The notes: a model not told the origin generated them from the letters alone. Positions 6,965-59,651 are shown, counted from the first letter of the stretch. The stretch: 64,000 nt of DNA from an uncultured delta proteobacterium (GCA_903907985.1 CAIVQG010000026.1:3045-67044); one strand, 5' to 3'. Numbers and translations are program-made.

Positions 6965-6993
6965 GATTCCTCCAAAAGGTTTTATTTGAATGA

Positions 6994-7022
6994 ATTATAC
7001 CAGAAAGGCAGATGTTTGTCAA
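6994..7022 (-). promoter_or_regulatory. Perfect consensus sigma70 promoter with extended -10, inside the miniature element
   Basis: Minus strand: TTGACA, 17-nt spacer ending TGG, TATAAT; followed by GGAGG (6969-6973) and ATG at 6964. Confidence 0.85.
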
Positions 7023-7137
7023 AATATATATATAATAATATCAACGTATTATGTTTAAATAAGGCAATTTTTCAATGAAATTCTGTTGCATGAAAAAGGA
7101 AATTTCTTGTCTAGTTGTGCAAAGGTCTCAAGTCATT

Positions 7138-7698: not shown

Positions 7699-7699
7699 T

Positions 7700-9604: not shown

Positions 9605-9655
9605 AAATATGAATCATTTATATTATATCCACTATTTTCTATAAAAAACCGGCCA

Positions 9656-12349: not shown

Positions 12350-13366
12350 ATGGATTTGGATAACAAAACTATTCTCATTACCGGAGGTACCGGATCGCTT
12401 GGTAAGCAGATGGTTAAAACTATTCTAGAAAATTATAAACCCAAAAAGCTTATCATCTTTTCCAGGGATGAACTTAAACAGTTTGAAATGGCCCAGACTT
12501 ATTCAATAGCTAAATATCCCTGCCTTCGTTATTTTATTGGCGATGTACGTGATCAGGATAGGTTGTACGAGGCATTTCACGGTGTTGATTATGTCATACA
12601 TGCCGCTGCCCTGAAACAAGTGCCCACTGCTGAATATAATCCATTTGAAGCAATTAAAACCAATGTGTTAGGTGCTCAGAATGTTATAAGAGCTTCAATT
12701 AATCAAAATGTTAAGAAAGTTATTGCTTTAAGCACTGACAAAGCTGCGAATCCAATAAATCTTTATGGTGCATCTAAACTTTGTTCGGATAAGCTTTTTG
12801 TTGCCGGTAATGTAATGAGCGGTTATGAAAGGACCATTTTTTCAGTTGTACGTTATGGGAATGTTCTTGGCAGCCGTGGTTCCGTCATACCTTACTTCAT
12901 AAAAAGCAGATCCAGTTCAGTACTTAAGATAACAGATTCCAGAATGACTAGATTTTTTATAACAATTCAACAGGCGGTCGATTTTGTGCTTAGATGTTTG
13001 TCGATGATGCTTGGGGGCGAAATTTTTGTTCCCAAAATACCCAGCGCTAAAATAATCGATGTGGCAAGAGCAATTGCACCGGACGCCAGCATTGAGTATA
13101 TAGGAATACGTCCGGGAGAAAAGCTTCATGAAGTTTTAGTGCCTGAAGATGAAGCGAGACATACTATTGAATTAGACGATCACTTTATTATTGAACCGGA
13201 TTTCGACTTTTGGCAAATAAAGAAAGATAATAAAAAAGACAAAAGTGGTAAGCAATGTCCAGACGATTTTCGTTATTCCAGCGATAATAACCCGCAATGG
13301 CTGTCCGGTGAGGGCATAATAGATCTTTTTAATACATATTGTGAGATGAATAATGTCACCGAATAA
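12350..13366 (+). CDS. pseB: UDP-N-acetylglucosamine 4,6-dehydratase (inverting)
   Basis: ITGGTGSLG, SRDELKQ, AALKQVPTAEYNP, STDKAANPINLYGASK, VRYGNVLGSRGS. Confidence 0.95.
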   Translation: MDLDNKTILITGGTGSLGKQMVKTILENYKPKKLIIFSRDELKQFEMAQTYSIAKYPCLRYFIGDVRDQDRLYEAFHGVDYVIHAAALKQVPTAEYNPFEAIKTNVLGAQNVIRASINQNVKKVIALSTDKAANPINLYGASKLCSDKLFVAGNVMSGYERTIFSVVRYGNVLGSRGSVIPYFIKSRSSSVLKITDSRMTRFFITIQQAVDFVLRCLSMMLGGEIFVPKIPSAKIIDVARAIAPDASIEYIGIRPGEKLHEVLVPEDEARHTIELDDHFIIEPDFDFWQIKKDNKKDKSGKQCPDDFRYSSDNNPQWLSGEGIIDLFNTYCEMNNVTE

Positions 13367-14501
13367 AAAAATACCATACGGGCGGCATTCTATTGACCAG
13401 GAAGATATTCAAGCAGTTGTTGAGGTATTGAAGTCTGATTGGCTTACCACGGGTCCGCTTATAGATCAATTTGAGAAAGTTTTTTCTGAGTTTGTTGGAG
13501 CGAAATACGCAGTTGCTGTGAACAGTGGGACAGCAGCTCTTCATGCCGCTATGTTTGCTATTGGCATTGTTCCGGGGGATGAGGTTGTTGTGCCGGCAAT
13601 GACTTTTGCGGCGACAGCTAATTGCGTTGCTTTTCAGGGAGGAACTCCTGTTTTTGCAGATGTTGATCCCGGGAGCCTTACATTAGATCCCTCATCCGTC
13701 AAGGCCAGAATATCACCTAAAACCAAGGCAATAATCGCAGTTGACTATGCCGGACAACCTTGCAATTATGATGCCCTTGCGGAAATTGCCTTGAGCAATA
13801 ACCTTATTCTGGTAGCAGATGCCTGCCATTCACTGGGCGGCAGTTATAAGCAAAATTCCGTTGGTTCCCTTGCCGAGCTCAATGCTTTTAGTTTTCATCC
13901 CGTCAAACATATTACAACAGGAGAAGGAGGCATGATTACAACAAGTGATCAGAGGCTGGCGGAACGCATGAGAATTTTTCGTAATCATGGAATATCTACG
14001 GACCACCACCAAAGAGAGGCTCAGGGATCATGGTTCTATGAGATGACCGATTTGGGGTACAACTACAGGATAACGGATTTTCAATGTGCATTGGGTATGA
14101 GTCAACTTAAGAAGTTGCCATCATGGATTAAGCGTAGGCATGAAATAGCCCGTAGATACAATGAAGCTTTTAATGAATGTCCTCAAATAAAACCTCTATT
14201 GGTTAGAGATGATGTCTTGCATGCCTATCACTTATATGTGGTACGCTTAAACTTTGAGGGTACGAACCTGAACCGCAATATGATTTTTAAACAACTTAGA
14301 GAAAAAGGTATAGGCGTCAATGTTCACTATATTCCTGTTCACCTACACCCTTTTTACAGAATTAAATTCAAAACAGCTCCCGGATTGTGTCCCGTATCTG
14401 AAGCTGCTTATAATGAAATTATCTCTCTTCCTATGTTTCCCGATCTGTCCGACGACGATCTGGGGGAAGTAATAGATGGCCTTATAAACTTATTCAGTTA
14501 A
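13353..14501 (+). CDS. pseC: UDP-4-amino-4,6-dideoxy-N-acetyl-beta-L-altrosamine transaminase
   Basis: IPYGRH, DACHSLG, SFHPVKHITTGEGG, GYNYRITD, VNVHYIPVH; follows pseB. Confidence 0.93.
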   Translation: MSPNKKIPYGRHSIDQEDIQAVVEVLKSDWLTTGPLIDQFEKVFSEFVGAKYAVAVNSGTAALHAAMFAIGIVPGDEVVVPAMTFAATANCVAFQGGTPVFADVDPGSLTLDPSSVKARISPKTKAIIAVDYAGQPCNYDALAEIALSNNLILVADACHSLGGSYKQNSVGSLAELNAFSFHPVKHITTGEGGMITTSDQRLAERMRIFRNHGISTDHHQREAQGSWFYEMTDLGYNYRITDFQCALGMSQLKKLPSWIKRRHEIARRYNEAFNECPQIKPLLVRDDVLHAYHLYVVRLNFEGTNLNRNMIFKQLREKGIGVNVHYIPVHLHPFYRIKFKTAPGLCPVSEAAYNEIISLPMFPDLSDDDLGEVIDGLINLFS

Positions 14502-14561: not shown

Positions 14562-15629
14562 ATGAATTTGTATATAAGAGCGGATGCCGATTCAAAAATC
14601 GGCATCGGACATATAATGCGTTGCATTGCTCTAGCTCAGGCTTGGCAGAATAGAGGTGGAAATGTTACTTTTATAAGCCGTTGCAAAAGTATTCCGCTGA
14701 AACAAAAAATCCAGGAGGAAGGTTTCAATTTAGTTCCACTGGATGGAGTTTGTCCTGACCCAACTGACCTTAAATCGATACTGGAAGTTTTAAAAGAAAA
14801 CCAAACCGTTAATACGGAAAACTGGTTTGTCCTGGATGGCTATCATTTTACACCATATTATCAGAAAGCAATACATGATACCGGCATGCAACTTCTGGTT
14901 ATCGACGATATGAATCATTTAATTCATTATCATGCTGATATAATTATCAATCAGAATAGCCATGCTCGAGAATTAACTTATAATTGCGCTGAAGACACAA
15001 TTTTACTCAAGGGCGCCTCTTATGTCTTTTTGCGTAGAGAATTCCTGAAATATCGGAGCTTCAAACGCCAGATACCGGAATGTGCGAAAAATATCCTTGT
15101 AAGCCTGGGCGGAGCCGATCCGGACAATGTAACGAAAAAAGTTATTCAGGCGCTTAATCTGCTGAGTAGCAAATTACAGATGGAAATCAATATTGTTGTT
15201 GGGCCTGCGAACTTGCATAAAGAGCAGATAAAATCTGCTTTGGAATCAACCGGGTTAAATTACAATTTATTAGTTAATCCTTCCGATATGGTGGATTTAA
15301 TGGCCGATGCAGATTTGGCAATATCTGCAGGAGGGGGCACATATTGGGAGCTTGCTTATATGGGGGTACCCTCCATAATGATCATTCTTGCAGAAAATCA
15401 GAAAGCTGGTGCCGAAGAATTGGGAAAAGCAAGAATTGTTCTTAATCTTGGTTGGCATAATTCATTATCAATAGAAAGCCTGGCCCAAGCCATCTTCTCC
15501 ACGGCTATTTCCGCGCAGGCAAGATTAGATATGATTCAAAAAGGGCGGGATCTGATTGATGGCAATGGGGCAGCGGTGACTATAGACGCAATGAAATCAT
15601 GTGCTGCAAGGGAGAGAAAAACAGCATGA
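14562..15629 (+). CDS. pseG: UDP-2,4-diacetamido-2,4,6-trideoxy-beta-L-altropyranose hydrolase
   Basis: IRADADSKIGIGHIMRC, LDGYH, LGGADP, ISAGGGTYWE, AENQ, IDGNG. Confidence 0.92.
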   Translation: MNLYIRADADSKIGIGHIMRCIALAQAWQNRGGNVTFISRCKSIPLKQKIQEEGFNLVPLDGVCPDPTDLKSILEVLKENQTVNTENWFVLDGYHFTPYYQKAIHDTGMQLLVIDDMNHLIHYHADIIINQNSHARELTYNCAEDTILLKGASYVFLRREFLKYRSFKRQIPECAKNILVSLGGADPDNVTKKVIQALNLLSSKLQMEINIVVGPANLHKEQIKSALESTGLNYNLLVNPSDMVDLMADADLAISAGGGTYWELAYMGVPSIMIILAENQKAGAEELGKARIVLNLGWHNSLSIESLAQAIFSTAISAQARLDMIQKGRDLIDGNGAAVTIDAMKSCAARERKTA

Positions 15630-16390
15630 ATGTCGGGATGATGCAGCCGACTTTCATGCCGTGGCTAGGTCTTTTTGAATTAATTTGTAAATCTGACATA
15701 TTTATATTACTCGATGATTTCCAATTTTCAGTCCAAAGTTGGGATCAGCGAAATAGACTTTTTGTGAATAAGAATCAAGTTGATTGGTACACAATTCCCA
15801 TACAGAAATCAGAATCTTTTTTAAAACCTTTTAATAGAGCAATTATAAACGAATCTGTTCCCTGGCGATCGAAAATGCTGAAACGCATCCAGCAGAATTA
15901 TTCCAAGGCTGGTTATTATAGTGAAATATATCCCATTGTGGAAAAATGGCTTCTAACAATAAAGCAGTCATTGGCCGAACAAAACATCCTTTTTATTAAA
16001 AGCATATGTAGTTGCCTCAATATTAATTGTGAATTCCGCAATAGTTCGGATTATCCATCAACAAATAAAAGATCAATTAGGGTTCTTGAACTGCTTCGGT
16101 GGTGTCTGGCTACGCGTTATTATTCTGCAAATGGTTCTTTTGAATATATGTATGAAGATAGTGTTTTTCCTGTGCATGACATAGATATTATGTTTCAGGA
16201 TTTTCGGCATATACCGTATAAGCAGGTCGGATCGCCGAATGAATTTGTTCCTTACTTATCAGTAATAGATGCGCTGATGAATACAGGGCCGGCAACGACG
16301 TATGAATTGATTAAACAAGGCACTGTGCGATGGTTGACCTGGGAAGAAAGAATGGTTAATCGCAGCCAAGCCGAAGGTGTTCATTCATAA
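15626..16390 (+). CDS. WbqC family protein
   Basis: MQPTFMPWLG, DDFQF..W..RN, LSVIDALMN; ATG at 15626 overlaps the pseG stop (ATGA). Confidence 0.88.
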   Translation: MNVGMMQPTFMPWLGLFELICKSDIFILLDDFQFSVQSWDQRNRLFVNKNQVDWYTIPIQKSESFLKPFNRAIINESVPWRSKMLKRIQQNYSKAGYYSEIYPIVEKWLLTIKQSLAEQNILFIKSICSCLNINCEFRNSSDYPSTNKRSIRVLELLRWCLATRYYSANGSFEYMYEDSVFPVHDIDIMFQDFRHIPYKQVGSPNEFVPYLSVIDALMNTGPATTYELIKQGTVRWLTWEERMVNRSQAEGVHS

Positions 16391-16401
16391 AGGACGTTTA
16401 A

Positions 16402-17091
16402 ATGGTATATGTATTAGCAACATCTCATGCATGGAATGAAGAGCTGTCTCAGGAAGTCGAGATTGCGACAGGTCATTCGGTAATATTAATAAACAAGAAA
16501 GAAGATTTGAGTAATTATAATCTTCAAAAGATAGGGCCGCGATACATATTTTTTCCACATTGGTCTTATATAGTACCACCTCAAATATATAATAAATTTG
16601 AGTGTGTAATATTTCATATGACAGATGTGCCTTTTGGACGTGGCGGGAGTCCTTTGCAGAATTTAATATCGCGTGGAATCTACGAGACGAAAATTACGGC
16701 TTTAAAATGTCAATCAGAGATAGACGCAGGCCCCGTGTACATGAAAAAACCGCTTTCTCTTTTTGGTACTGCGGAGGAAATCTATTTAAGGGCATCCAGA
16801 ATTGTAAGAGATATGATTATTGAAATTATAAATAAGGAGCCAGTGCCTCAAGAACAAAAAGGAGTGGCAACTAATTTTACCAGACGTAAACCGGAAGAAG
16901 GTAATATCAATAATTTATGTGAACTCGAAGAAGTTTTCGACTACATTAGAATGCTAGATGCGGAAGGATATCCTCCCGCCTTTCTGGAAACTGAAAAATT
17001 CAAATTCGAGTTTAAAAGAGCAAGCCTTAAGTTCAATAAGATAATTGCTGATGTTATAATAACTAAAAAAAGCGAGGATATTAAATCATAG
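16402..17091 (+). CDS. Sugar N-formyltransferase (Fmt-like)
   Basis: FFPHWS, VIFHMTDVPFGRGGSPLQNLI, IDAGP, IRMLDAEGYP. Confidence 0.85.
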   Translation: MVYVLATSHAWNEELSQEVEIATGHSVILINKKEDLSNYNLQKIGPRYIFFPHWSYIVPPQIYNKFECVIFHMTDVPFGRGGSPLQNLISRGIYETKITALKCQSEIDAGPVYMKKPLSLFGTAEEIYLRASRIVRDMIIEIINKEPVPQEQKGVATNFTRRKPEEGNINNLCELEEVFDYIRMLDAEGYPPAFLETEKFKFEFKRASLKFNKIIADVIITKKSEDIKS

Positions 17092-17092
17092 C

Positions 17093-17779
17093 ATGAATAA
17101 AATACTTGTTATTGCAGCGCATCCCGATGATGAAGTGTTGGGCTGTGGTGGAACCATAGCTCAACATTGTGTTAATGGCGACGAAGTGCATATTTTAATA
17201 ATGGCCGAAGGCATAACAAGCCGAGATATGAATAGAGATGTTTCAGGGCGCCATTCTGATTTGGAGATTCTAAAGAAAGCAGCTTATGCGGCAAAGGAAA
17301 TTCTGGGTGCGTCATCACTAACAATTGAAAATTATCCGGATAATAGATTAGACTCAATAGATATGATCGAAATCATAAAGAAGATTGAGTTTAACATTCA
17401 AAAATATAATCCCAGTATTATCTATACTCATTATGCCGGCGATTTAAATTTAGATCACAAGATAGTTAACAATGCCGTTGCCGTTGCCTGTAGGCCTTTG
17501 CCGGGGGCAGCAGTAAAAACAATATTGTTTTTTGAAATTCCTTCCAGTACGGAATGGCAGATAATCGGTAGTGGGGCTTCATTTTCTCCTAACTGGTTTG
17601 TTGATATTGAGGAGACATTCGCTATCAAAATGAAAGCTTTGGAATGCTACTCAAGTGAATTAAGGCCATGGCCGCATCCAAGATCACCGGAGGCAATACG
17701 TCATTTGGCTTCCTGGCGTGGCGCATCGGTTGGGGTTGAATGTGCTGAAGCATTTGTTCTGGGAAGAAATATTGGTTAA
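17093..17779 (+). CDS. PIG-L/LmbE family N-acetyl sugar deacetylase
   Basis: AAHPDDEVLGCGG, YTH..D...DH, AEAF. Confidence 0.9.
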   Translation: MNKILVIAAHPDDEVLGCGGTIAQHCVNGDEVHILIMAEGITSRDMNRDVSGRHSDLEILKKAAYAAKEILGASSLTIENYPDNRLDSIDMIEIIKKIEFNIQKYNPSIIYTHYAGDLNLDHKIVNNAVAVACRPLPGAAVKTILFFEIPSSTEWQIIGSGASFSPNWFVDIEETFAIKMKALECYSSELRPWPHPRSPEAIRHLASWRGASVGVECAEAFVLGRNIG

Positions 17780-18391: not shown

Positions 18392-18484
18392 AAGATGTTT
18401 CGCTAACTTCAACCTCAATCAAATTTCCCTGATATTAGTCGGGGATGTATAGAGTGTAGATAATCAAGTTAGTTGGAGGATTCA

Positions 18485-19804
18485 ATGAGTACGATAAAAA
18501 GTCAGGAGATGCAAAAACGTGCAAAACAGCGGATACCCGGCATGACGCAGCTTCTTTCCAAGCGACCGGACCAATTTTCACTGGGTGTATGGCCGGGGTA
18601 TTACAGCAAAGCTAAAGGTGTAGAGGTCTGGGATCTGGATGGCAACCTATATGTAGATATGTGTATTGGTGGTATCGGTGCCAATGTGCTTGGATATGCT
18701 GATGATGATGTAGATAAAGCAGTCTGCGAGGCGATAAAAAACGGTTCAAGCTCGTCTCTCAATTGTCCGGAAGAAATTGAGCTTGCCGACCTCTTATGCG
18801 AGATACATCCCTGGGCGGATAAAGTACGCTATGCCCGCTCCGGCGGAGAGTCAATGACGATAGCGGTCAGGATTGCCCGTGCGCAAACCGGTAAGGATAA
18901 AGTGGCCTTTTGTGGATATCATGGGTGGCATGACTGGTACTTGTCGGCAAATTTAGGCACTGAAAACGCATTAGGCGAGCATTTGTTGACAGGGCTTGAT
19001 CCCCGTGGGGTCCCGAAAGGTCTAACCGGAACTGCGCTGCCGTTTCGCTACAATCATATAGAAGAACTAAAAGAAATTATTGCGAACAATAAAAACGAAC
19101 TGGCTGCAATAGTTATGGAGCCGATTCGCGATGATGAACCCGATGCCGGGTTTTTTGATGAGATACGCGCTTTGGCAGATGAAACAAAAGCTGTTTTTAT
19201 AATTGATGAAATTTCTGCGGGGTTTCGTATGAATTCAGGTGGCGCCCATCTCATTTATAATATCCAGCCTGATATAGCAGTTTTTTCCAAAGCTTTGGGA
19301 AATGGCTATCCTATCGCTGCTATTATTGGTAAGGGCGATATTATGGATGCTGTACAAAAGACATTTATCAGCAGCACCATGTGGACAGAGCGTATTGGAC
19401 CAACAGCCGCACTGGCAACATTAAAGAAACATCGCTCATTGGATGCAGGAAAACATCTCGTGTCGATTGGAAAACTAATTCAGGAAGGTTGGGTAAGGTT
19501 GGCTGAAAAGAATGATTTGAAGATTCATGCTGGTGGAATTCCTCCGCTTAGTCATTTTTCGTTCGAATATTATAATAACAGTCTGGCATTAAAAGCTCTT
19601 TTCGTTCAGTTAATGCTTGATAAAGGTTTTTTGGCTTCAACATCTTTCTACTCCATGTATGCACACCAGCAGAAACATGTTGAAAGTTATCTCCATGCGG
19701 TCGATGAAGTATTTAAAGTAATTTCTCGGGCAATTAAACAGGGTGATGTTGAGCAAAAGCTAAAAGGAAAGCCTGCCGTGGCCGGTTTTAAGCGTCTTAC
19801 ATAA
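18485..19804 (+). CDS. Class III PLP aminotransferase (glutamate-1-semialdehyde aminomutase-like)
   Basis: WDLDGN, GYHGWHDW, IDEISAGFR, FSKALGNGYPI (PLP Lys); ATG at 18485 follows GGAGG. Confidence 0.9.
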   Translation: MSTIKSQEMQKRAKQRIPGMTQLLSKRPDQFSLGVWPGYYSKAKGVEVWDLDGNLYVDMCIGGIGANVLGYADDDVDKAVCEAIKNGSSSSLNCPEEIELADLLCEIHPWADKVRYARSGGESMTIAVRIARAQTGKDKVAFCGYHGWHDWYLSANLGTENALGEHLLTGLDPRGVPKGLTGTALPFRYNHIEELKEIIANNKNELAAIVMEPIRDDEPDAGFFDEIRALADETKAVFIIDEISAGFRMNSGGAHLIYNIQPDIAVFSKALGNGYPIAAIIGKGDIMDAVQKTFISSTMWTERIGPTAALATLKKHRSLDAGKHLVSIGKLIQEGWVRLAEKNDLKIHAGGIPPLSHFSFEYYNNSLALKALFVQLMLDKGFLASTSFYSMYAHQQKHVESYLHAVDEVFKVISRAIKQGDVEQKLKGKPAVAGFKRLT

Positions 19805-19813
19805 AAACATCTT

Positions 19814-20722
19814 ATGGTCACACTACCTGCCACATGTTCTCTTGTTTTAGGAACAGCACAACTTGGATTTCCTTATGGAATAGCTAATGCCAAGGGGCAG
19901 CCTGACCAGAAGACTGTAACAGATATAATTCAAAAAGCGTGGGATAATGGTATCAGAGAATTTGACACGGCCCAAGACTATGGGGCCAGCGAAAAAGTGC
20001 TGGGGATTGCTTTTGCGAAAATAGGTATTTTGGAAGAAGCAGGCGTTATCAGTAAGATCAATCCTGAACTGGACCACTGTAATCTGCTCACTATGTCTAA
20101 GGCTCTGGATGAATCACAAAAAAAATTAGGGGTTCCATGTCTTTCCGGCCTGATGCTCCACAAAGAAGATATGCTTTGCCAATGGTCAAATGGGCTTGGC
20201 GATATTTTAAGGGGTTTTGTTGCTGCGGGGAAAGTTAAAAAAATAGGGGTATCGGTTTATTCGCCTGAAAAAGCCTTAGAAGCATTAAGAATGGAAGGGA
20301 CTGATATGATTCAAATCCCTTCTAATATTCTTGACAGAAGGTTTGAGAGGGCGAAAGTATTCCAAGTGGCAGCAGAAAAAAAGAAACAGGTTTATATCCG
20401 CAGTGTTTTCCTTCAAGGGCTTATTCTTATGGATTCGAAAGACCTTCCGGCACATATGTCTTTTGCCGGGCCGGTGCTTGATAAAATTAAATCTCTTTCT
20501 CGTGACATGAGTTTAACAAGACATGAACTGGCCCTGGGATATCTCAAAGAAAGATTTCCGGAGGCAAAACTGATTATAGGTGTGGAAACACCTGAGCAAG
20601 TAATAGAAAATGTGATGAGTTGGAAAAGAAAAACGGCAGTAGATTTAATTCCGTTAGTTTCGAAATACTTCGATCAGGTTGATGAAAAGATTTTAAATCC
20701 CTCATTATGGAGTATTAAATGA
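19814..20722 (+). CDS. Aldo/keto reductase
   Basis: LGTAQLG, FDTAQDYGASE, KIGVSVY, RSVFLQG. Confidence 0.9.
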   Translation: MVTLPATCSLVLGTAQLGFPYGIANAKGQPDQKTVTDIIQKAWDNGIREFDTAQDYGASEKVLGIAFAKIGILEEAGVISKINPELDHCNLLTMSKALDESQKKLGVPCLSGLMLHKEDMLCQWSNGLGDILRGFVAAGKVKKIGVSVYSPEKALEALRMEGTDMIQIPSNILDRRFERAKVFQVAAEKKKQVYIRSVFLQGLILMDSKDLPAHMSFAGPVLDKIKSLSRDMSLTRHELALGYLKERFPEAKLIIGVETPEQVIENVMSWKRKTAVDLIPLVSKYFDQVDEKILNPSLWSIK

Positions 20723-21510
20723 TAGCTGCATTTATTCAAGCCAGACTGTCTTCAACACGTTTTCCGGGTAAAGTTCTCAAGCCTATTTTGGGAAGACCGA
20801 TGTTGGAGATGCAGATTGAACGCGTTAAGCTTTGTGAAACAATTGATCGTGTTGTCGTTGTTACAAGCACGCATCCCGATGATCAACAGATTGTCAACCT
20901 ATGTAAACAGATTAATACGGATGTTTTTTGCGGAAATCTGGAGAACGTTCTTGATCGATTTTATCAGGCGGCAAAAAAGTTCAAACCGGATCACGTTGTT
21001 CGGCTTACAGGGGATTGTCCTCTGATTGATCCTAAAGCTGTAGACAACATGGTGCAGCTTTACCTGGAACAAGATGGCGATTATGGAACTAATTGCATGC
21101 CGCCGACATATCCGGATGGTCTTGATGCAGAGATTTTTTCTTATAGGGCTCTTGAACTTGCAATCAACGAGGCGTTTCTGCCGTCTCATCTGGAGCATAT
21201 ATCGCTCTTCTTTGAAGAACAGCCGGAACGGTTTAAAATAGTAAATTTTGCCAATAATGCCGATCTTTCTTATCTGCGGTGGACGGTTGATGAGCCGGAA
21301 GACTTTGAATTTGTGAAAAATGTGTTTGAGGCTCTTTATCCTTCCAACCAGTTATTTGGCATGGCTGATGTTTTAGAGCTGTTAAGAAAAAGGCCGGAAT
21401 TAACTTCATTAAACAAACATTTTATCAGGAACGAAGGCCTTATCAAAGCGAAGGAAAAAGATACTGCTTTCCTTGAGCATGGTGGTGCATTGAAAAAACC
21501 TAACGGCTGA
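20719..21510 (+). CDS. Acylneuraminate cytidylyltransferase, SpsF type (PseF counterpart)
   Basis: IQARLSSTRFPGKVL, VRLTGDCPLIDP, RWTVDEPED. Confidence 0.88.
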   Translation: MIAAFIQARLSSTRFPGKVLKPILGRPMLEMQIERVKLCETIDRVVVVTSTHPDDQQIVNLCKQINTDVFCGNLENVLDRFYQAAKKFKPDHVVRLTGDCPLIDPKAVDNMVQLYLEQDGDYGTNCMPPTYPDGLDAEIFSYRALELAINEAFLPSHLEHISLFFEEQPERFKIVNFANNADLSYLRWTVDEPEDFEFVKNVFEALYPSNQLFGMADVLELLRKRPELTSLNKHFIRNEGLIKAKEKDTAFLEHGGALKKPNG

Positions 21511-21538
21511 GTTTAATAACCAAAAAGGTGGCCTAATT

Positions 21539-22582
21539 ATGTGTATGATATTAAATAAGAGAAAAATTTGTGCCGGAAAACCAGTTTATATTATTGCCGA
21601 AATGTCGGCAAATCACAACCAGCACTTGGATCGGGCAATTAAAATTATTGAAGCTGCCAAGGATTCAGGAGCGGATGCTGTGAAAATTCAGACTTATACC
21701 CCGGATACAATGACCATTGATTCCGCAAATGAATGCTTTCAGATTAAAGGCACTATCTGGGAAGGGGAAAATCTATACAAACTGTATCAAGAAGCTTTTA
21801 CACCATGGGAATGGTCGCCGAAATTGAAAGAAGTCTGTGATAAACTTGGGATGGATTTTTTTTCAACACCATTTGATTTGTCAGCGGTTGATTTTCTGGA
21901 GCGGCTTAATATTACGGCTTACAAGGTAGCTTCTTTTGAATTGGTAGATATACCTTTGCTGAAGAAAATTGCAGCAACAGGCAAGCCGATCATCATGTCC
22001 ACCGGGATGGCAACATTGGCGGAGATAGATGAAGCTGTTCAAACAATTTATAATTCAGGCAATAATCAGTTGGCATTGCTTAAATGTACAAGCGCCTATC
22101 CGGCGCCACCCGAAGAAATGAATTTGAGAACGATTCCTCATCTTTCCGAGGCCTATAATATTCCTGTAGGTCTCTCTGATCACACATTAGGAAGTGCTGC
22201 TGCCATGGCGGCAGTTGCTCTTGGTGCTTGCATTATAGAGAAGCATCTGACCTTAACTCGCAGCGATCCCGGCCCTGATAGTGCGTTCTCTACGGAACCC
22301 GCTGAATTTAAGGCTATGGTAGATGATATCAGAACTGTGGAAAAGGCCTTAGGTATGGTTTGTTATGAGCTTACGGAGAAACAGAAGGAGAATCGTGTAT
22401 TCCGGAGATCTCTTTTTGTGGTTAAAGACTTAAAGAAAGGCGATTATTTCTCTAATGAAAATGTCAGGTCCATAAGACCGGGTCACGGAATGCATACTCG
22501 ATATCTGGAAGAAATTCTAGGTCGGAAAGCCACGAAGGATATTGAAAAGGGAACGCCATTGAATTGGGACATGGTGGGATGA
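21539..22582 (+). CDS. pseI: Pseudaminic acid synthase
   Basis: IAEMSANHN, KIQTYTPDT, STPFD, KVASFE, LKCTSAYP, GLSDHT, C-terminal SAF/antifreeze-like domain. Confidence 0.95.
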   Translation: MCMILNKRKICAGKPVYIIAEMSANHNQHLDRAIKIIEAAKDSGADAVKIQTYTPDTMTIDSANECFQIKGTIWEGENLYKLYQEAFTPWEWSPKLKEVCDKLGMDFFSTPFDLSAVDFLERLNITAYKVASFELVDIPLLKKIAATGKPIIMSTGMATLAEIDEAVQTIYNSGNNQLALLKCTSAYPAPPEEMNLRTIPHLSEAYNIPVGLSDHTLGSAAAMAAVALGACIIEKHLTLTRSDPGPDSAFSTEPAEFKAMVDDIRTVEKALGMVCYELTEKQKENRVFRRSLFVVKDLKKGDYFSNENVRSIRPGHGMHTRYLEEILGRKATKDIEKGTPLNWDMVG

Positions 22583-22676
22583 TTGCCCGCCGCTGGACAT
22601 GAGAACATTTCTCAGGCGTCAAATTAATTTTGCGAAGCTTAGTGAAAACGCATTAAATATCAGATAGAGAGAGTAG

Positions 22677-23678
22677 ATGATAAATGTAAAAACAAGAAGT
22701 ATTTCTCCAGAGTTGCCGGGAACCGATAAAAAACTGGGTCCGGTTTTTCATGATGAAAAATGGATAGCATACCGGAAAAAATGGGATGAATATCCTGCTT
22801 ATGGAATTGTAGATAAAGTCCCCCTGCAGATTGATCTGTTTGCAGTTGATATATGCAATCTGAAATGCCCCATGTGCCCGAGGCAGGTTTTCATTCCCGG
22901 TAAGGGATATATGGATTTTAGTTTTGTTAAGGCAGTAATAGATCAGGCGACGGAGCATGGTTTGTGTGCTTTGAACTTTGCTGGTTTAGGAGAACCAACG
23001 TTGTATCCTGAACTTTTTGCAGTAATTAGATATGCAAAAGAAAAAGGTGTTGTCGATGTAAATATGCACACGAACGGTACCAGACTGGGCACGGCATTTA
23101 ATAAGAATCTCATTGAATCAGGTCTGGACAGGCTCATTATCTCACTCGATAGTGCCGATAAAGAGCGCTACGAAAGAATCAGGGTGGGTGCCAAATTTGA
23201 AAAGGTCTATGCGGCAGTTGAAGATTTAATAAAGCAGCGCAACGAGCATCCCCAAACCAGACTGCATATTAAAGCAAATTTTATTGAAATGGATGAAAGC
23301 GATCCCACGGAGAAGAACAAATTCATATCTTACTGGGAGAACAAATTGGATCGCATAGCGATTTTGCGATACCTTGATTGTCAATCAGAAGAGGAAGAGC
23401 TTTATCATAAAGCAAATTATAATCAGGATGATAATTTCTGCTGTCCGGAATTATGGCGCCGATTGGTTATATTAAGTGATGGCACAGCAACACTTTGTCC
23501 GCGTGATATGAAAAAAAGGTATGTCATTGGTGATATCGACAAACAAACGGTTTCCGAGATCTGGGAAGGTGTGATGATGCAAAAAGCAAGAGACCTTCAC
23601 CGGAATGGCCGTTTTAAAGAATTGGATTTATGTAAAGATTGTCCGGATTCTTATGAAAAGAAAAGTGTTGTAGAATGA
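22677..23678 (+). CDS. Radical SAM protein with SPASM/twitch domain
   Basis: CNLKCPMC, GLGEP; C-terminal C-P-ELW...DGTATLC...CKDC. Confidence 0.9.
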   Translation: MINVKTRSISPELPGTDKKLGPVFHDEKWIAYRKKWDEYPAYGIVDKVPLQIDLFAVDICNLKCPMCPRQVFIPGKGYMDFSFVKAVIDQATEHGLCALNFAGLGEPTLYPELFAVIRYAKEKGVVDVNMHTNGTRLGTAFNKNLIESGLDRLIISLDSADKERYERIRVGAKFEKVYAAVEDLIKQRNEHPQTRLHIKANFIEMDESDPTEKNKFISYWENKLDRIAILRYLDCQSEEEELYHKANYNQDDNFCCPELWRRLVILSDGTATLCPRDMKKRYVIGDIDKQTVSEIWEGVMMQKARDLHRNGRFKELDLCKDCPDSYEKKSVVE

Positions 23679-24685
23679 AGATCAAGAAGAACTGGGAAAT
23701 CAAGGCTTCTCTTTTAACAAAAGCTCGTAATCTTTATAGGAAGGGTGGTTTAAACCCCGCATTTTATCTTTATAGATATCGCTTTAGTGCACTGGCTGAC
23801 AAATTCAAGATAGGGAAATATCCTCTGGACGTAATTGCGGAAACCTCAAATATTTGTAACCTGCGCTGTACGATGTGTTTTCAGAGTGATGAAGCATTGC
23901 CTGTTTTGAAGACCACAAAAGTTTCACTAATGGCAATGGATACTTTTAAAAAAATTGCCGATGAGTGTGCAAGTTATAAAATTCCCGCCCTAAAACTGAA
24001 CTGGCGGGGAGAGCCCATGTTAAATAAGAACTTTACTGAAATGTTGAGATATGCCAAAGGCAAAGGCATTTTGGAGGTTACTTCTTTAACCAATGGAACA
24101 TTGATGAATGAAAATATCTGCCGGGAAATTGTAGCGGCAAAGATGGACCAGCTTGTTATTTCGATTGATGGATTTACCAAAGAAACATACGAAAAAATCA
24201 GGGTTGGCGCCGATTATGATGAAGTAATTAACAATATAAATAACTTGATAGGTATAAGGGGAAAATCAAGAAAACCCTTTATCCGATTGCAATATACAGA
24301 ATCTGAAATTAATAAACACGAAACTTCCTCATTTTATCAGTATTGGAACAAGAAGGTTGACGAAATTACAGTTTCCTACTGCCAGGATTTCGGCTCTCTC
24401 GGGAAAAATAATCCTGATGAAGTGCCAATTCATTCATTCTTTTGTCAACAGCCTTTTCAACGCTTAGTTATTATGGCAGACGGCACAGTAACTGTGTGTG
24501 CAACTGATGTAATGGGGGACATCTCTATCGGGAATATTTATGAAGATAGCCTGGAGCATCTCTGGAATGGTTCTAAAATAAACAAGTTACGAGAACAGCA
24601 TAAATCCGGTAGATATTACGAAAATTCAATGTGCCGAATATGTGCACATAATCGTTTCAATGCAAACAAGCAAGCTGGTCGTTAG
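23675..24685 (+). CDS. Radical SAM protein with SPASM/twitch domain
   Basis: CNLRCTMC, WRGEP; C-terminal CQQPF...DGTVTVC...CRIC. Confidence 0.9.
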   Translation: MKIKKNWEIKASLLTKARNLYRKGGLNPAFYLYRYRFSALADKFKIGKYPLDVIAETSNICNLRCTMCFQSDEALPVLKTTKVSLMAMDTFKKIADECASYKIPALKLNWRGEPMLNKNFTEMLRYAKGKGILEVTSLTNGTLMNENICREIVAAKMDQLVISIDGFTKETYEKIRVGADYDEVINNINNLIGIRGKSRKPFIRLQYTESEINKHETSSFYQYWNKKVDEITVSYCQDFGSLGKNNPDEVPIHSFFCQQPFQRLVIMADGTVTVCATDVMGDISIGNIYEDSLEHLWNGSKINKLREQHKSGRYYENSMCRICAHNRFNANKQAGR

Positions 24686-24713: not shown

Positions 24714-26561
24714 TTGATAAATAATAGTGTCCGTATTTTAAATACGGAATACAGATATATTTTTCTTGTTCAAAATCGTGATTATTGGAATGCATGTCCA
24801 TTTGAATATGATCTTGAAAAAGACCTTGTATTATCTTTTGATTTTGCCGTTGTTAATTTGGTCAAGTCTAAGGGAGGAGAAGCGCAGTACATTGATCATA
24901 TCGTCAGTAGCGAAATAATGGAAAGCTACAATTACAAGACATATGATTTCTTCGCTCATTGGCATTATAATGCAAACAAAGAGGATATTTTTAGTTATAA
25001 AGGAATCGAAGTAGGAAGTGCTTTTAGGATAGAGATATGGAACGACCTTACATTTTACGTACGAATATTCATAAATGTACATGAATTATTAAAAAGCATT
25101 AAATATGAGAGAATTTATGCTGGGATTGATGATCCCGTCGTCAATGATGTTCTTGAATTTCTCAAGATTGCTAACACCAAATGGCCGAAAAAGAATAATA
25201 AAGGTTCATCTGAATATTATTTCCCGATTTTTAAATGGATGGACGACGCCCTTCATCCATCTGATATCAAGTACAAGGCGAGAATATTTATTCTTAGAGT
25301 ATTGAATAAAATATTCAGCCTTATAAGAAAACTGTTCTGCAAGATAAATGACAAAAAGTATGTGTATGTTGAGTGGTATCATCCGACTAAGGACATTATC
25401 TCCGCTCTGAAAAGGTCAAATGCTGTCAATACAGTGCAGAGTGATTTTAGCGGTATAAATAGTATAAAAGACTTATTTAACGGACTAAATCTTCCTATAC
25501 CTGTTTCTCTAAATGCTGATTGTAGTGATATTGCAACACAAGAAATAATAAAGAGATTTAATGAAGAAAAATGTGCAACTTTATTTATTGATGAAACAGA
25601 TATAAGTAATGAGCTTCATAAGTTAATTATTAAAAGAATTTCACCTCTTGTAGCTAAATCGTTTAAAATAGTTGATGCCATAATAAAGTTTTTTAACGAT
25701 AAAAGGCTCTGTCTTATGATTACAATGGCCAGCATTGGAGTAGTAAATCGATTAATGATTAACTACTGCAATAAAAACAATGTTACCGTTTATATGATCA
25801 TTAATGGATGGCTGGGAAATTCCTTTCTTGATGAGGCTAAATCAGGCGGCACCTGGATCAATTCATATAGCGACGCGATAAAAAAGAACTATTTTATGGG
25901 TATGGATAATATAGTTTGCCTCGGAGACCCACGTATGGACAAATTTGCAATGTCTATCGTAGTAAGAAAAATAGATTATAACAAGCCAACTATCGGGATA
26001 GGCGCGTCAGGATTTACTAATGTTGATTTGAACTGTTATCTTGCAATTGAATTTGAATTTTTGAATGATGTGATGAATGCATTCAGGAAACTGAAGGAAA
26101 TGGGCAGAGAGATGAATATTATAATAAAAATTCGTCAAAACGGCTACATTGAACAATACGAGAAATTTCTTCAGGAGTACTACCCGGATATGTCAGTGAG
26201 CCTTTTTGATTCTATACCGATAAATCAGATTTATGAAAGAGTTGATTTTTTCATATCCATTTATTCACAAAGTCTTTTTGAAGCTTCATGTCTGGGAATA
26301 CCAGTTTTGTACTATAAAAATGATACACAGTATTTTCAACCTCCGTTCGATGGTGAATCCGAAATCGTCACGGGATTTACACCGGATGATCTTATAAGCA
26401 AGATAGAAGCCTTTTATAACCGTGATGCAATCTATGACTCGTTTAAAGAGAAAAAAATAATGGGAAAATATATTGGCCCTTTGGATGGACAAAATCTAAA
26501 ACGTAACATGGATTTCATTTATTCTTTGATGCCTGACGATCATGTTAAGACTGCTCATTAA
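24714..26561 (+). CDS. Hypothetical protein with GT-B-like C-terminus; candidate nonulosonate transferase
   Basis: 615-aa intact ORF; CLGDPRMD, IIIKIR, SQSLFEASCLGIPV resemble GT-B C-terminal motifs; between the pse genes and wzx. Confidence 0.5.
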   Translation: MINNSVRILNTEYRYIFLVQNRDYWNACPFEYDLEKDLVLSFDFAVVNLVKSKGGEAQYIDHIVSSEIMESYNYKTYDFFAHWHYNANKEDIFSYKGIEVGSAFRIEIWNDLTFYVRIFINVHELLKSIKYERIYAGIDDPVVNDVLEFLKIANTKWPKKNNKGSSEYYFPIFKWMDDALHPSDIKYKARIFILRVLNKIFSLIRKLFCKINDKKYVYVEWYHPTKDIISALKRSNAVNTVQSDFSGINSIKDLFNGLNLPIPVSLNADCSDIATQEIIKRFNEEKCATLFIDETDISNELHKLIIKRISPLVAKSFKIVDAIIKFFNDKRLCLMITMASIGVVNRLMINYCNKNNVTVYMIINGWLGNSFLDEAKSGGTWINSYSDAIKKNYFMGMDNIVCLGDPRMDKFAMSIVVRKIDYNKPTIGIGASGFTNVDLNCYLAIEFEFLNDVMNAFRKLKEMGREMNIIIKIRQNGYIEQYEKFLQEYYPDMSVSLFDSIPINQIYERVDFFISIYSQSLFEASCLGIPVLYYKNDTQYFQPPFDGESEIVTGFTPDDLISKIEAFYNRDAIYDSFKEKKIMGKYIGPLDGQNLKRNMDFIYSLMPDDHVKTAH

Positions 26562-26668
26562 AGTTTCTTGTTTTACCGCTGGTAGTTTTCTGTCGTTTTA
26601 ACCTGTTGATTTTTTCCTGGTTCACGGAATTTTTCGGGGACCAACCACTCGGGAATCTTAAACAAAAC

Positions 26669-28225
26669 ATGTCTGAAGTAAAAAATAATAATTCTGAAGA
26701 TTCTTTTAAAAAAAGATATTCTTTTAAATTGATAACTAATATTATTGGATTAGGTATCGGCTTAATAACGCAATCTATCGTTCCCCGGGCATTAGGTCCT
26801 GCTTCATATGGGAACTTTTCTTTTCTTACCAGCTTCTTCTGGTCTGTTGCCGGTTTTTTAAACTTCAATTCATCCACTTTTTTTTATACAAAGTTGTCAC
26901 AGAAGCAAGATGATAAAACATTAGTGGGATTTTATTTTTATTTTGTCTTAATCATTGGTTTATTTCTGGGAGTGATTTTAGCTTTCCCGGTAGTGCTTGG
27001 TTATAATGAAATTATATGGCCGGAACAGAAATTTATTTTTGTGATTCTTGGTGCCATCTGGGCGTATATGTCATTTTATGTGATGATTTTAGTAGACATG
27101 TCCGATGCGTATGGTTTGACTGTTAAATCTGAAAAGGTCAATACAGTCCTGAAAATTGTTGGTTTAACCATAATTTTAATAATGTTCTGGAAAAATTGGT
27201 TTTCCCTTCTTAATTATTTTTTGTATCACCTATTAATTTTGGCACTTTCGATAAGTGCGTTAATTTATATTATTTTTAAAAATAAAAAATCTCTTTCTCC
27301 TTTCTGGCGATTGGATAATGCACAGGTTAAAAAATATGCGAAAGATTTTTCGAAGTTTTGTGCTCCATTGATAGTATTTACATTTTTGGGAGTTGTTGCC
27401 CAGATATTAGAGAGATGGTTTTTGCAGACCTTTTCCGGCAGTGTTAAACAGGGCTTCTTCGCATTGTCTTCTCAAGTTGCCAGTATTTCTTTTCTATTCA
27501 CTTCAGCAGTAATGCCGCTTGTTTTACGGGATCAAGCCATCTCTTTTGGAAACAAGGATTTAGAAAGGTCGCAAAAAATTTTTAAACGTTCAACTTTTAC
27601 ACTTTATTTATTAACGACATTTTTTTGTTGTTTTATTGCTGTTGAGGCAAAAACAGTCTTGCTTTTTTTTGGCGGTCAGGCCTATTCAGAAGCATTAGTG
27701 CCTCTGGCTATTATGTCTTTATATCCTATCCATCAGACTTATGGACAATTGAACGGCAATTTTTTTTTTGCAACAGAACGCGTAGTAGCATATCGGAATA
27801 TTGGACTGATTTTTATATTTATAGGTATACCAATAACATTCTTTTTGTTAGGTCCTGAAAAATATGGTGCTTTGCAGTATGGCGCGACAGGCTTGGCATT
27901 AAAAATGGTCGGCCTTCAGATTATAAGCACAAATGTACAGCTTTGGTTTAATGTTAAATATTTAAAAATATCCTTCAAAGAGTTTTTGGTTAACCAGATT
28001 GCCTGTTTTTCAATATGTATGCTTACTGCCCTTGCATGCTCTTATGCCGTTGATGAAATATTAAAGAGTTTCCATTTTTCTATCCGATTCCTAATTTCGG
28101 GGCTTTTCTATTCATCATGTATGCTTGTTTTAATAATAAAAAAACCGAATGTGTTTTCATTGGAAGAAGAGGATGTTTTAAAAGTACTCAATTACGTTAA
28201 AGGGAAATTGGCATTCCAGCGATAA
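26669..28225 (+). CDS. wzx: O-antigen flippase
   Basis: About 12-14 TM segments, PRALGPASYG, G.F.L pattern; start uncertain (26606 TTG or 26669 ATG). Confidence 0.85.
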   Translation: MSEVKNNNSEDSFKKRYSFKLITNIIGLGIGLITQSIVPRALGPASYGNFSFLTSFFWSVAGFLNFNSSTFFYTKLSQKQDDKTLVGFYFYFVLIIGLFLGVILAFPVVLGYNEIIWPEQKFIFVILGAIWAYMSFYVMILVDMSDAYGLTVKSEKVNTVLKIVGLTIILIMFWKNWFSLLNYFLYHLLILALSISALIYIIFKNKKSLSPFWRLDNAQVKKYAKDFSKFCAPLIVFTFLGVVAQILERWFLQTFSGSVKQGFFALSSQVASISFLFTSAVMPLVLRDQAISFGNKDLERSQKIFKRSTFTLYLLTTFFCCFIAVEAKTVLLFFGGQAYSEALVPLAIMSLYPIHQTYGQLNGNFFFATERVVAYRNIGLIFIFIGIPITFFLLGPEKYGALQYGATGLALKMVGLQIISTNVQLWFNVKYLKISFKEFLVNQIACFSICMLTALACSYAVDEILKSFHFSIRFLISGLFYSSCMLVLIIKKPNVFSLEEEDVLKVLNYVKGKLAFQR

Positions 28226-28920
28226 TGAATTCATTAATTAAATATACATGGATGCAATTTAAAGAGTTTATTGTTTCTGCCCGTTTACAGGCAAAAATGG
28301 AAAGGAAATATCCAACATGCCTTTTCTATCCGGGCGCGATTGTAGATGATATTTCCAGACTCGGAAAATACAATGTAATTTTTCAGAAATCAATAATTAT
28401 TGATTCGGTTATTGGAGACCACACATTTATACAAAAAAATTCACAGGTAATATGTGCAGAAATAGGAAAGTTCTGTTCTATAGCCGGGGGAGTGAAGATA
28501 GGTCTTGGACGACATCCGCTGACTTTTGTAAGTACTCATCCGGCATTTTATTCTGCAACACAACCGCTTGCCAAAACATTCTGCCAGTCCGACGTTTTTT
28601 CCCCTTTCCAGCGCACGTCTATCGGTCATGATGTATGGATCGGAGAAAGCGCCATGATCGTTGACGGAATAAAGATAGGTATTGGTGCGGTTGTAGCTGC
28701 AGGTGCCGTGGTTACTAAGGATGTGCCTCCTTATGCAATTGTGGCAGGAGTTCCGGCAAAAATAATAAAATACCGTTTTGACGAAGAGACAAAGAAACAG
28801 CTTCTGCAATCAAAGTGGTGGGATATGGACGAGGATGTTCTTCGGAATCATTACAAGTTGTTTATGAATGCGAAGACATTTGTTACAACAAATATTCTAA
28901 ATAATAGAGAGGGTCTATAG
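28225..28920 (+). CDS. CatB-related left-handed beta-helix O-acetyltransferase
   Basis: IGKFCSIA, H...VSTHP, IGHDVWIG, GAVVTKDVPPYAIVAGVPA. Confidence 0.9.
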   Translation: MNSLIKYTWMQFKEFIVSARLQAKMERKYPTCLFYPGAIVDDISRLGKYNVIFQKSIIIDSVIGDHTFIQKNSQVICAEIGKFCSIAGGVKIGLGRHPLTFVSTHPAFYSATQPLAKTFCQSDVFSPFQRTSIGHDVWIGESAMIVDGIKIGIGAVVAAGAVVTKDVPPYAIVAGVPAKIIKYRFDEETKKQLLQSKWWDMDEDVLRNHYKLFMNAKTFVTTNILNNREGL

Positions 28921-30695: not shown

Positions 30696-30704
30696 GGATT
30701 ATAT

Positions 30705-31520: not shown

Positions 31521-31533
31521 TGGTAATTATTGC

Positions 31534-33024: not shown

Positions 33025-33054
33025 TAATATTTCAGATAGTTACAAATTATTCAG

Positions 33055-59580: not shown

Positions 59581-59651
59581 GTTTAGTCCTTATTCGGTCG
59601 GGCATGCGCCGGATTCCGTCCCACAAAAGCGGGACTCCACCTTCAGCCTAT

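Follow-up and report, generated by a model that had tools for sequence, protein, structure and literature searches.

The question raised by this locus is whether the radical S-adenosylmethionine (SAM), aldo-keto reductase and class III aminotransferase genes found in a pseudaminic acid (Pse) operon of an uncultured delta proteobacterium constitute a single pathway towards a modified nonulosonic acid. The operon occupies positions 12.3-24.7 kb of the 64,000-nt stretch of DNA analyzed here (GCA_903907985.1 CAIVQG010000026.1:3045-67044; hereafter, the window) and lies within a long one-strand surface-polysaccharide locus. A first-pass annotation, made from the sequence alone, had treated the genes of the aminotransferase (AT3), the reductase (AKR) and two tandem radical SAM proteins (rSAM1 and rSAM2) as a candidate for one undescribed route of oxygen-independent oxidation followed by amination or stereo-inverting reduction, tightly coupled to the genes of a cytidylyltransferase (CTF) and of the pseudaminic acid synthase PseI. 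Our analysis has shown that the flagged genes are two separable accessory modules on the Pse operon, AT3-AKR-CTF and rSAM1/rSAM2.

Two separable modules and their distribution

The genes of both modules, together with pseI, are arranged as follows.

18473..19804, + strand: AT3, GSAM-like class III pyridoxal phosphate (PLP) aminotransferase; Pfam Aminotran_3, 133.4 bits vs 30.5
19814..20722, + strand: AKR, aldo-keto reductase; Pfam Aldo_ket_red, 90.8 bits vs 24
20719..21510, + strand: CTF, SpsF-type CTP_transf_3 cytidylyltransferase; Pfam, 105 bits; PDB 6oew, E 4.7e-42
21539..22582, + strand: pseI, pseudaminic acid synthase; TIGR03586, 507.5 bits vs 340.25; Pfam NeuB, 325 bits, and SAF
22677..23678, + strand: rSAM1, radical SAM protein with one predicted four-Cys auxiliary cluster (BtrN-like); Pfam Radical_SAM and SPASM
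23675..24685, + strand: rSAM2, rSAM1 paralogue sharing its Cys pattern; Pfam Radical_SAM and SPASM

These are six intact open reading frames (ORFs), all on the + strand, that span positions 18473-24685 with 4-bp overlaps between AKR and CTF and between rSAM1 and rSAM2, which confirms the coupling of the flagged genes to the cytidylyltransferase gene and pseI. The start codon of AT3 is TTG at 18473, the ATG at 18485, from which the gene had previously been counted, being codon 5.

A metagenome scan seeded with AT3 yielded 80 loci with 50-79% identity, of which the 39 that are 10 kb or longer were analyzed. Most of them contain PseI/NeuB (32 loci), PseB (29), PseC (28), CTF (29) and AKR (22), and a relative of rSAM1 or rSAM2 is present in only four. 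In the neighbourhood sample seeded with rSAM1, comprising 80 loci from species-representative genomes, AT3 relatives are found in 15 loci and AKR relatives in five. Because of these frequencies the modules are considered separable, and the claim that the four genes form one obligatory pathway is not supported by the same counts. The complete set AT3-AKR-CTF-PseI-rSAM1-rSAM2 is kept together in three loci (L004, L006 and L097 in our numbering), and a further locus, L008, is cut at rSAM1.

AT3 orthologues (55-70% identity) are present in four of 40 relatives of the genome carrying the window, in each case at most about 3.5 kb from a NeuB match on the same contig. No rSAM1 orthologue was found in any of the 40, the only matches being paralogues with 27-32% identity in four genomes. 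NeuB itself is widespread in the genus, being present in 9 of 12 other genomes. For the cluster, the closest orthologues come from other phyla, namely, from Omnitrophota, PVC-group and Planctomycetales metagenome-assembled genomes (MAGs). This distribution fits horizontal transfer of the cluster.

Motifs and predicted fold of the radical SAM proteins

rSAM1 and rSAM2 are paralogues (30% identity, E 3e-44), with motifs CNLKCPMC and YERIRVGA in the former and CNLRCTMC and YEKIRVGA in the latter. The only invariant cysteines are C60/C64/C67 and C256/C274/C319/C322 in rSAM1 (48 relatives), and C61/C65/C68 and C257/C275/C320/C323 in rSAM2 (25 relatives). The same set of three plus four cysteines is observed in 107 family rows, where the CX3CX2C triad is 99-100% conserved. 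Hence the CxxxCxxC motif, the short C-terminal cysteine set and the YE(R/K)IRVGA motif noticed in the first-pass annotation are all present and, as the cysteines are invariant among the relatives, the cysteine motifs are not a chance occurrence.

Since only four extra cysteines are conserved, too few for both SPASM clusters, a single auxiliary cluster is expected, and the four C-terminal cysteines probably bind an auxiliary [4Fe-4S] cluster. Despite this, the Pfam SPASM model matches rSAM1 and rSAM2 over the whole length of the model. No NCBIfam model scored either protein near its cut-off. The AlphaFold models are confident (pLDDT 92.2 for rSAM1 and 86.6 for rSAM2), and a Foldseek comparison with PDB places BtrN (4m7t) first for both proteins (E 5.3e-13 and 2.2e-12, respectively; TM score by target 0.73). 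The best PDB sequence match of rSAM1 is the auxiliary domain of BtrN (E 1.7e-9). According to these models, rSAM1 and rSAM2 are single-auxiliary-cluster (twitch-type) enzymes with BtrN as the closest solved relative, in agreement with the type originally assigned to them.

BtrN, the 2-deoxy-scyllo-inosamine dehydrogenase of butirosin biosynthesis, shares with rSAM1 and rSAM2 the CX3CX2C motif and the four-Cys auxiliary cluster, and its substrate is a small carbohydrate-like molecule rather than a peptide, similar to the substrates proposed here. The proteins differ in that identity is only 16-19%, the context of rSAM1 and rSAM2 is that of a nonulosonate and not of an aminoglycoside, and, unlike BtrN, both rSAM1 and rSAM2 have an additional N-terminal segment of approximately 50 residues with a conserved Tyr-Arg pair. 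In the rSAM1 model this segment is formed by a strand and two helices, with no peptide-binding domain recognisable by eye. Sugars are known substrates of twitch radical SAM enzymes; in particular, HygY and SpeY, a sugar epimerase and a sugar dehydrogenase of this type, respectively, exemplify the chemistry on sugar carbinols proposed here.

The radical SAM family in nonulosonate gene clusters

An exhaustive HMMER search over 1.84 billion representatives (clusters at 50% identity) retrieved 570 clusters at E<=1e-30, 7,928 at 1e-10 and 26,688 at 1e-3. Relatives of rSAM1 with 60-83% identity are plentiful in metagenomes and MAGs, including those of Omnitrophota, the PVC group, Syntrophus, Thermodesulfobacteriota and Oligoflexia. 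In the rSAM1-seeded sample the carriers of the family include Clostridia, Campylobacterota, Alphaproteobacteria, Spirochaetales, Thermodesulfobacteriota and candidate phyla, as well as the archaeal Nanoarchaeota, Hadarchaeota and Methanosarcinales.

In the rSAM1-seeded sample, NeuB is encoded in the flank of 51 of the 80 loci by ORF blastp (50 by tblastn). It lies within 3 kb of the radical SAM gene in 42 loci, and of the 50 loci that are 15 kb or longer 38 contain it. By chance, NeuB would be expected in about 0.4% of 21-kb stretches, as calculated from 24 NeuB matches in approximately 117 Mb (a sum of rounded genome sizes) of 41 genomes of the window's own order. Thus, the co-occurrence with nonulosonate synthases, on whose absence the initial proposal would have fallen, is far above the chance level. 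Homologues of the CTP_transf_3 cytidylyltransferase are even more frequent, being present in 65 of the 80 loci, in 54 of them within 3 kb, and directly adjoining the radical SAM gene (gap of at most 400 bp) in 37, which makes the cytidylyltransferase the commonest immediate neighbour, with NeuB next.

The family neighbours both Pse-type and legionaminic acid (Leg)-type clusters. For instance, the Sulfurospirillum locus L041 contains LegB/C/H/I/G-like genes with the order PtmE-like, rSAM, cytidylyltransferase, rSAM, and the Sporofaciens locus L066 has the composition rSAM, CTF, PIG-L, NeuB, PseG-like, WbqC. In the FastTree tree of 107 family members, the rSAM1 (7 rows) and rSAM2 (5 rows) clades are tight and separate, and in the 12-row sister clade of rSAM2 NeuB is nearby in all 12 cases.

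Moreover, gene fusions have been identified. A single ORF in locus L075 encodes NeuB, SAF and radical SAM domains. Of seven family representatives of long or odd length that were scanned, two have no added domain and five have one each, these being CTP_transf_3, 2-hydroxyacid dehydrogenase, FkbM methyltransferase, GNAT and hexapeptide acyltransferase. A word-indexed search for longer fused forms of rSAM1 gave a single weak, unrelated match. Because of the co-occurrence with NeuB and the cytidylyltransferase and because of the fusions, the gene context places the radical SAM family in nonulosonate biosynthesis, with the CMP-activating enzyme as its apparent closest partner.

A similar combination of domains is seen in spiroSPASM (NCBIfam TIGR04321), where residues 22-226, in the N-terminal half, correspond to CTF and residues 233-506, in the C-terminal half, to rSAM1 and rSAM2, though the scores of all three proteins are below the spiroSPASM cut-off of 250. 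SpiroSPASM was detected above the cut-off in 181 of 201 Spirochaetota genomes, some of them only 1.0-1.5 Mb in size, and is a single-copy gene there. As a near-universal core gene of Spirochaetota, it was rejected as a nonulosonate-specific link between CTF and radical SAM proteins, and its role is probably different from those of the window genes. A gene table for Campylobacter fetus lists two phase-variable radical SAM genes without a stated function.

The AT3-AKR-CTF module

By score AT3 is not HemL (264.5 bits vs 486 and 205.7 vs 527.3 with the HemL models), and its context is a Pse operon. Its closest relative is GSAM, and it also matches aminoglycoside C-6' aminotransferases (7lm0, E 5.6e-36). 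K273 of AT3 aligns with the lysine of GSAM 2hoy in LGKIIGGG, the PLP-binding residue. The retained lysine and the relationship to C-6' sugar aminotransferases support the earlier classification of AT3 with the sugar-aminating class III enzymes. In AKR, the residues D51/Y56/K81/H116, read by eye from the translation, correspond to the Asp/Tyr/Lys/His tetrad pattern of aldo-keto reductases.

The three genes of the module are connected by single-ORF fusions, namely, CTF-AT3 (six cases), AKR-CTF (one) and CTF-AKR (one); in addition, there are one AKR-NeuB-like and three CTF-PseG fusions. The cytidylyltransferase is therefore coupled to the flagged genes, as was suggested at first, but not as a mere neighbour, since the fusions make CTF a part of the AT3/AKR unit.

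There is a second recurrent module, consisting of genes for a radical SAM protein, a cytidylyltransferase, a second NeuB-like protein, a CTF-type protein, an approximately 335-aa protein and a class III aminotransferase. It is complete in L078 (9449-15720), L082 and L072, and only parts of it are present in L015 and L033. In L042 and L045 the first cytidylyltransferase is missing from an otherwise identical order, and in L042 the module is followed by genes for a short-chain dehydrogenase/reductase (SDR), a methyltransferase and a Maf flagellin glycosyltransferase. The approximately 335-aa protein is a Gfo/Idh/MocA NAD(P) oxidoreductase in all four cases scanned. Thus, in every case analyzed the class III aminotransferase keeps a nicotinamide-dependent redox partner, which is AKR in this operon and Gfo/Idh/MocA in other lineages. 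As AT3 has an NAD(P) oxidoreductase of its own, a carbonyl can be supplied or consumed without a radical enzyme, and this oxidoreductase, rather than a radical SAM protein, is the more likely carbonyl partner of AT3.

Genes of the same three types have been listed before. In the portions of the reports available, the Pse-type cluster of Legionella pneumophila serogroup 6 contains a GSAM-like gene, a cytidylyltransferase gene and a gene for an aryl-alcohol-dehydrogenase-like oxidoreductase (PMC3694923), and a Vibrio cluster contains a cytidylyltransferase-AKR fusion proposed by its authors to replace NeuA (PMC7371886). Neither gene list, as far as these portions go, includes a radical SAM gene.

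The arrangement of AT3 and AKR resembles the pairs KdnB/KdnA (Kdo8N), WbpB/WbpE and NeoQ/NeoB, oxidoreductase and aminotransferase pairs that represent the usual route from a sugar hydroxyl to an amine or back, in that an NAD(P) oxidoreductase and a PLP aminotransferase are encoded beside a sugar-activating enzyme. The difference is that AT3 is closest to GSAM and the oxidoreductase is AKR or Gfo/Idh/MocA. Our search of the open literature revealed no nonulosonate bearing a third amino group.

CTF as a putative CMP-Pse synthetase

With the PseF model TIGR03584 CTF scores only 32 bits at a cut-off of 205.7. CTP_transf_3 matches in its own genome number just three, these being KdsB on contig 60, CTF and a weak one of 32 bits, and a PseF-type gene is present in only 2 of the 29 CTF-bearing AT3-seeded loci of at least 10 kb, one of these being L129. 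As there is no other candidate in the genome, CTF is probably the CMP-Pse synthetase of the operon, in place of PseF. The alternative that CTF is an extra enzyme beside a hidden PseF was rejected for this genome, where the only other strong CTP_transf_3 match is KdsB.

CTF is of the same CTP_transf_3 subtype as SpsF from Bacillus subtilis and the PDB entry 6oew, annotated as 'cytidylyltransferase'. According to the accessible part of the study of B. subtilis, spsF is needed for legionaminic acid transfer and not for synthesis (PMC7439481). The overlap of CTF with AKR, its position downstream of AT3 and its fusions with both elsewhere are not described there for B. subtilis.

Proposed mechanism and alternative explanations

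From the observed gene identities, motif conservation, fold, co-occurrence, fusions and lack of another PseF, we infer the substrates, the direction of the AKR/AT3 reaction and the type of radical chemistry. The best explanation, which as a whole we regard as moderately probable, involves two modules, with activation by CTF, redox-amination by AKR/AT3 and hydrogen abstraction by the radical SAM proteins, all on a nonulosonate. In particular, CTF would activate the nonulosonate to its CMP form, and AKR and AT3, working physically next to CTF, would be an NAD(P)-linked carbonyl/amine pair, so that a nonulosonate hydroxyl would be oxidized to a ketone and then transaminated, or the reaction would run in the reverse direction. 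In rSAM1 and rSAM2, the 5'-deoxyadenosyl radical would take hydrogen from a carbon of the nonulosonate, its CMP form or an immediate precursor. Then, either the auxiliary cluster would accept an electron, yielding a ketone (dehydrogenation, as in BtrN), or hydrogen would be returned to the opposite face (epimerization). The absence of a conserved spare cysteine in rSAM1 and rSAM2 weakly favors dehydrogenation, while a redox-neutral outcome is weakly favored by the lack of a dedicated reductase or aminotransferase gene in the vicinity of most family members. That there are two paralogues suggests that two positions are attacked or that two steps follow each other. Here, AT3 or AKR could use a ketone formed by the radical SAM proteins, such coupling not being general to either module.

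Several observations weigh against this explanation. The lead of BtrN in the Foldseek lists is narrow, as SuiB, BlsE, DesII, anSME and SkfB follow within one to two orders of E-value, with MoaA also close behind, and among the PDB sequence matches of rSAM2 BtrN is only the fourth. Epimerases of the twitch radical SAM type are known to need a hydrogen-donor cysteine, and no conserved extra cysteine for this function was found among the 48 relatives of rSAM1 or the 25 relatives of rSAM2; the donor cysteine of HygY/SpeY-type epimerization thus has no conserved counterpart in either protein. At the same time, 73% of the 107 family members have a second cysteine directly after the column of rSAM1 C274, where rSAM1 itself has Pro and rSAM2 has Ala (the latter read by eye). 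NeuB is absent from 29 of the 80 rSAM1-seeded loci, though many of these are short contigs. The near-universal presence of spiroSPASM in Spirochaetota means that a cytidylyltransferase-like domain combined with such a radical SAM domain is not always about nonulosonates. Finally, L129 has both PseF-type and CTF-type genes, and hence CTF may have a job other than that of PseF there.

The proposal of a coupled pathway, in which the radical SAM proteins oxidize Pse carbinols without oxygen, AT3 aminates one of the ketones and AKR carries out a stereo-inverting reduction of the other, to give one epimeric or extra-amino nonulosonate, would explain why all four genes occur together and in the same order in the window and in three loci of other phyla (with L008 cut at rSAM1). 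It is also consistent with the BtrN-like fold and with the match between two radical SAM proteins and two carbonyl-using enzymes, and a precedent is the succession of BtrN and an aminotransferase in 2-deoxystreptamine synthesis. Yet the two modules are seldom found together in either set of loci, AT3 has its own NAD(P) oxidoreductase partner in every case examined, and the available gene lists for Legionella and Vibrio give the trio without a radical SAM gene, so we consider the coupled pathway unlikely. Another suggestion is that the radical SAM proteins act earlier or elsewhere, not on a carbinol of the finished nonulosonate. Their target would then be an N-acyl substituent or the 4-amino/4-acetamido hexose while still linked to the nucleotide, and the reactions could be DesII/AprD4/BlsE-type elimination, carbon-carbon bond formation and chain extension. 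DesII and BlsE are indeed among the top structural matches, and the fusions to GNAT, hexapeptide acyltransferase, FkbM methyltransferase and 2-hydroxyacid dehydrogenase point in this direction, the N-acyltransferase and methyltransferase fusions also fitting action at the hexose-nucleotide stage or on the N-acyl group. This family is carried by alphaproteobacterial loci, and the SugarBase preprint, in the part available, describes from Magnetospirillum a CMP-ulosonic acid whose backbone is longer by one carbon, with no enzyme assigned, which is a lead for the alphaproteobacterial members. On the other hand, the commonest immediate neighbour of the family is the cytidylyltransferase, followed by NeuB, a NeuB-rSAM fusion exists, and rSAM1 and rSAM2 have no cobalamin domain, which is usually needed for sp3 C-methylation by radical SAM enzymes. 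Action at an earlier stage or elsewhere seems unlikely.

It is highly improbable that rSAM1 and rSAM2 are peptide, protein or cofactor maturases merely lying in a glycan locus, although the full-length SPASM match, the high structural ranks of SuiB, anSME, SkfB and CteB, and the fact that spiroSPASM is a core gene of spirochaetes agree with this, and the best NCBIfam matches are maturase families, all far below cut-off. The gaps flanking rSAM1 and rSAM2 are only 94 bp and 28 bp, the sole small ORF there (22599-22667, between pseI and rSAM1; 22 aa) has no cysteine and is probably not a gene, the N-terminal 50 residues show no recognisable peptide-binding domain, and the family co-occurs or is fused with NeuB and the cytidylyltransferase across phyla. 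The more specific assignment to maturases of ribosomally synthesized and post-translationally modified peptides, or to two-cluster SPASM proteins, was rejected, as there are four conserved cysteines where the motif has seven and no plausible precursor ORF.

Novelty and possible significance

In the open literature searched, we found no account of a radical SAM system of pseudaminic, legionaminic or nonulosonic acid biosynthesis. The view of the first-pass annotation that the system is undescribed agrees with this search, subscription journals and supplements lying outside its scope. Neither a radical SAM family specific to nonulosonate clusters nor AT3, AKR and CTF as a unit was found described. 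Judging from its gene context, the family probably makes sugars not described so far. We suggest only tentatively that the family of rSAM1 and rSAM2 may be an unrecognised oxygen-independent tailoring class for CMP-nonulosonates, spread by horizontal transfer among anaerobic bacteria and archaea, that together with AKR, AT3 and CTF would give a new nonulosonate.

Nonulosonic acids are surface decorations, present on flagella, S-layers, capsules and O-antigens, and shape phage and immune recognition; the known diversity of their backbones is explained by NAD-dependent enzymes. To these, the large radical SAM family would add an enzymatic route of a new kind in anaerobes and archaea, probably leading to new sugars. 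If so, backbone variants (keto, epimeric, deoxy or chain-extended) would be missed by the current Pse/Leg typing, and in this operon the radical SAM proteins with AKR/AT3/CTF would yield an undescribed nonulosonate with an extra amino group or an inverted center. The AT3-AKR-CTF unit is common, is even fused in some loci and is present in Legionella and Vibrio clusters, yet it has no assigned function in the available parts of the respective reports. Both modules can be tested directly with available substrates such as Pse5Ac7Ac, Leg5Ac7Ac and their CMP forms.

Other genes of the operon and of the polysaccharide locus

The remaining genes of the operon and the gene following rSAM2 are listed below.

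12350..13366, + strand: pseB, UDP-GlcNAc 4,6-dehydratase (inverting); NCBIfam TIGR03589, 512.7 bits vs cut-off 407.75
13353..14501, + strand: pseC, DegT-type aminotransferase; TIGR03588, 468.8 bits vs 423.5
14562..15629, + strand: pseG, UDP-sugar hydrolase; TIGR03590, 232.6 bits vs 153.55
15599..16390, + strand: WbqC-like protein; Pfam PF08889, 198 bits
16402..17091, + strand: formyltransferase-like protein; Pfam Formyl_trans_C_2, 91 bits; ArnA/Fmt matches weak
17093..17779, + strand: PIG-L family de-N-acetylase; Pfam PF02585, 91.6 bits
17834..18391, + strand: GNAT N-acetyltransferase, candidate PseH; Pfam Acetyltransf_3, 96 bits; PseH model, 43.6 vs 93.1
24714..26561, + strand: 615-aa protein, candidate nonulosonate transferase; ESM Atlas look-alikes LIC12162, Capsule_synth and Glyphos_transf

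Since PseB, PseC, PseG and PseI score above the NCBIfam equivalog cut-offs, the operon is a Pse operon. Of the canonical six-enzyme CMP-Pse set, these four pass, PseH is represented by a GNAT protein scoring below the cut-off, and the score of CTF with the PseF model is low.

The WbqC-like, formyltransferase-like and PIG-L genes (15599-17779) are situated between pseG and pseI, and the formyltransferase and PIG-L genes recur together in L004, L006, L097, L121, L130, L147 and L173. A similar combination is described for Candidatus Kuenenia stuttgartiensis in the available part of the SugarBase preprint (2026), which links CMP-nonulosonates carrying a free and a formylated amine to a deacetylase and a formyltransferase of the nonulosonate cluster and infers that both reactions take place at the CMP-sugar level; the window has such genes between pseG and pseI. 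Unlike the window, the Kuenenia cluster is Leg-like, and the same part of the preprint mentions no radical SAM, AKR or class III aminotransferase gene in it.

The 615-aa protein encoded at 24714-26561 has no Pfam, NCBIfam or PDB sequence match, and its orthologue with 61% identity is encoded downstream of rSAM2 in L006. Given its structural look-alikes, it is a candidate nonulosonate transferase, to be treated as a lead only. The next gene, at 26606-28225, encodes a 539-aa protein without a family match in Pfam or NCBIfam and with a counterpart (49% identity) in L006; by eye it looks like a multi-pass membrane protein and is possibly a flippase or a polymerase. The region 28225-34038 encodes a hexapeptide acyltransferase, a NodU-like carbamoyltransferase, a methyltransferase, a B12-binding radical SAM protein (31501-33024) and a second methyltransferase, which suggests O-carbamoylation and C- or O-methylation of the glycan.

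The run of same-strand polysaccharide genes spans approximately from 9.6 kb to 55.8 kb of the window and also encodes a heptosyltransferase, a Wzz-like protein, several glycosyltransferase family 2 (GT2) enzymes, a PMT_2/ArnT-like protein, a sugar C-methyltransferase and a UDP-GlcNAc 2-epimerase. At 56003-63678 the genes turn to the minus strand and the G+C content increases from approximately 0.35-0.40 to 0.45; this is the end of the polysaccharide locus. A search of public sequencing runs for the locus listed five DNA runs (lake/freshwater metagenomes from two studies, one of them possibly its source) and no RNA run.

The same genome contains a second glycan locus (contig 35, 10000-29999; L095), with genes for RfbH, an SDR, a nucleotidyltransferase, a methyltransferase and three tandem radical SAM/SPASM proteins (6707-9943). 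It also encodes a B12-radical SAM protein, a methyltransferase, a thiamine pyrophosphate (TPP) enzyme and a 305-aa NeuB-like protein without the SAF domain.

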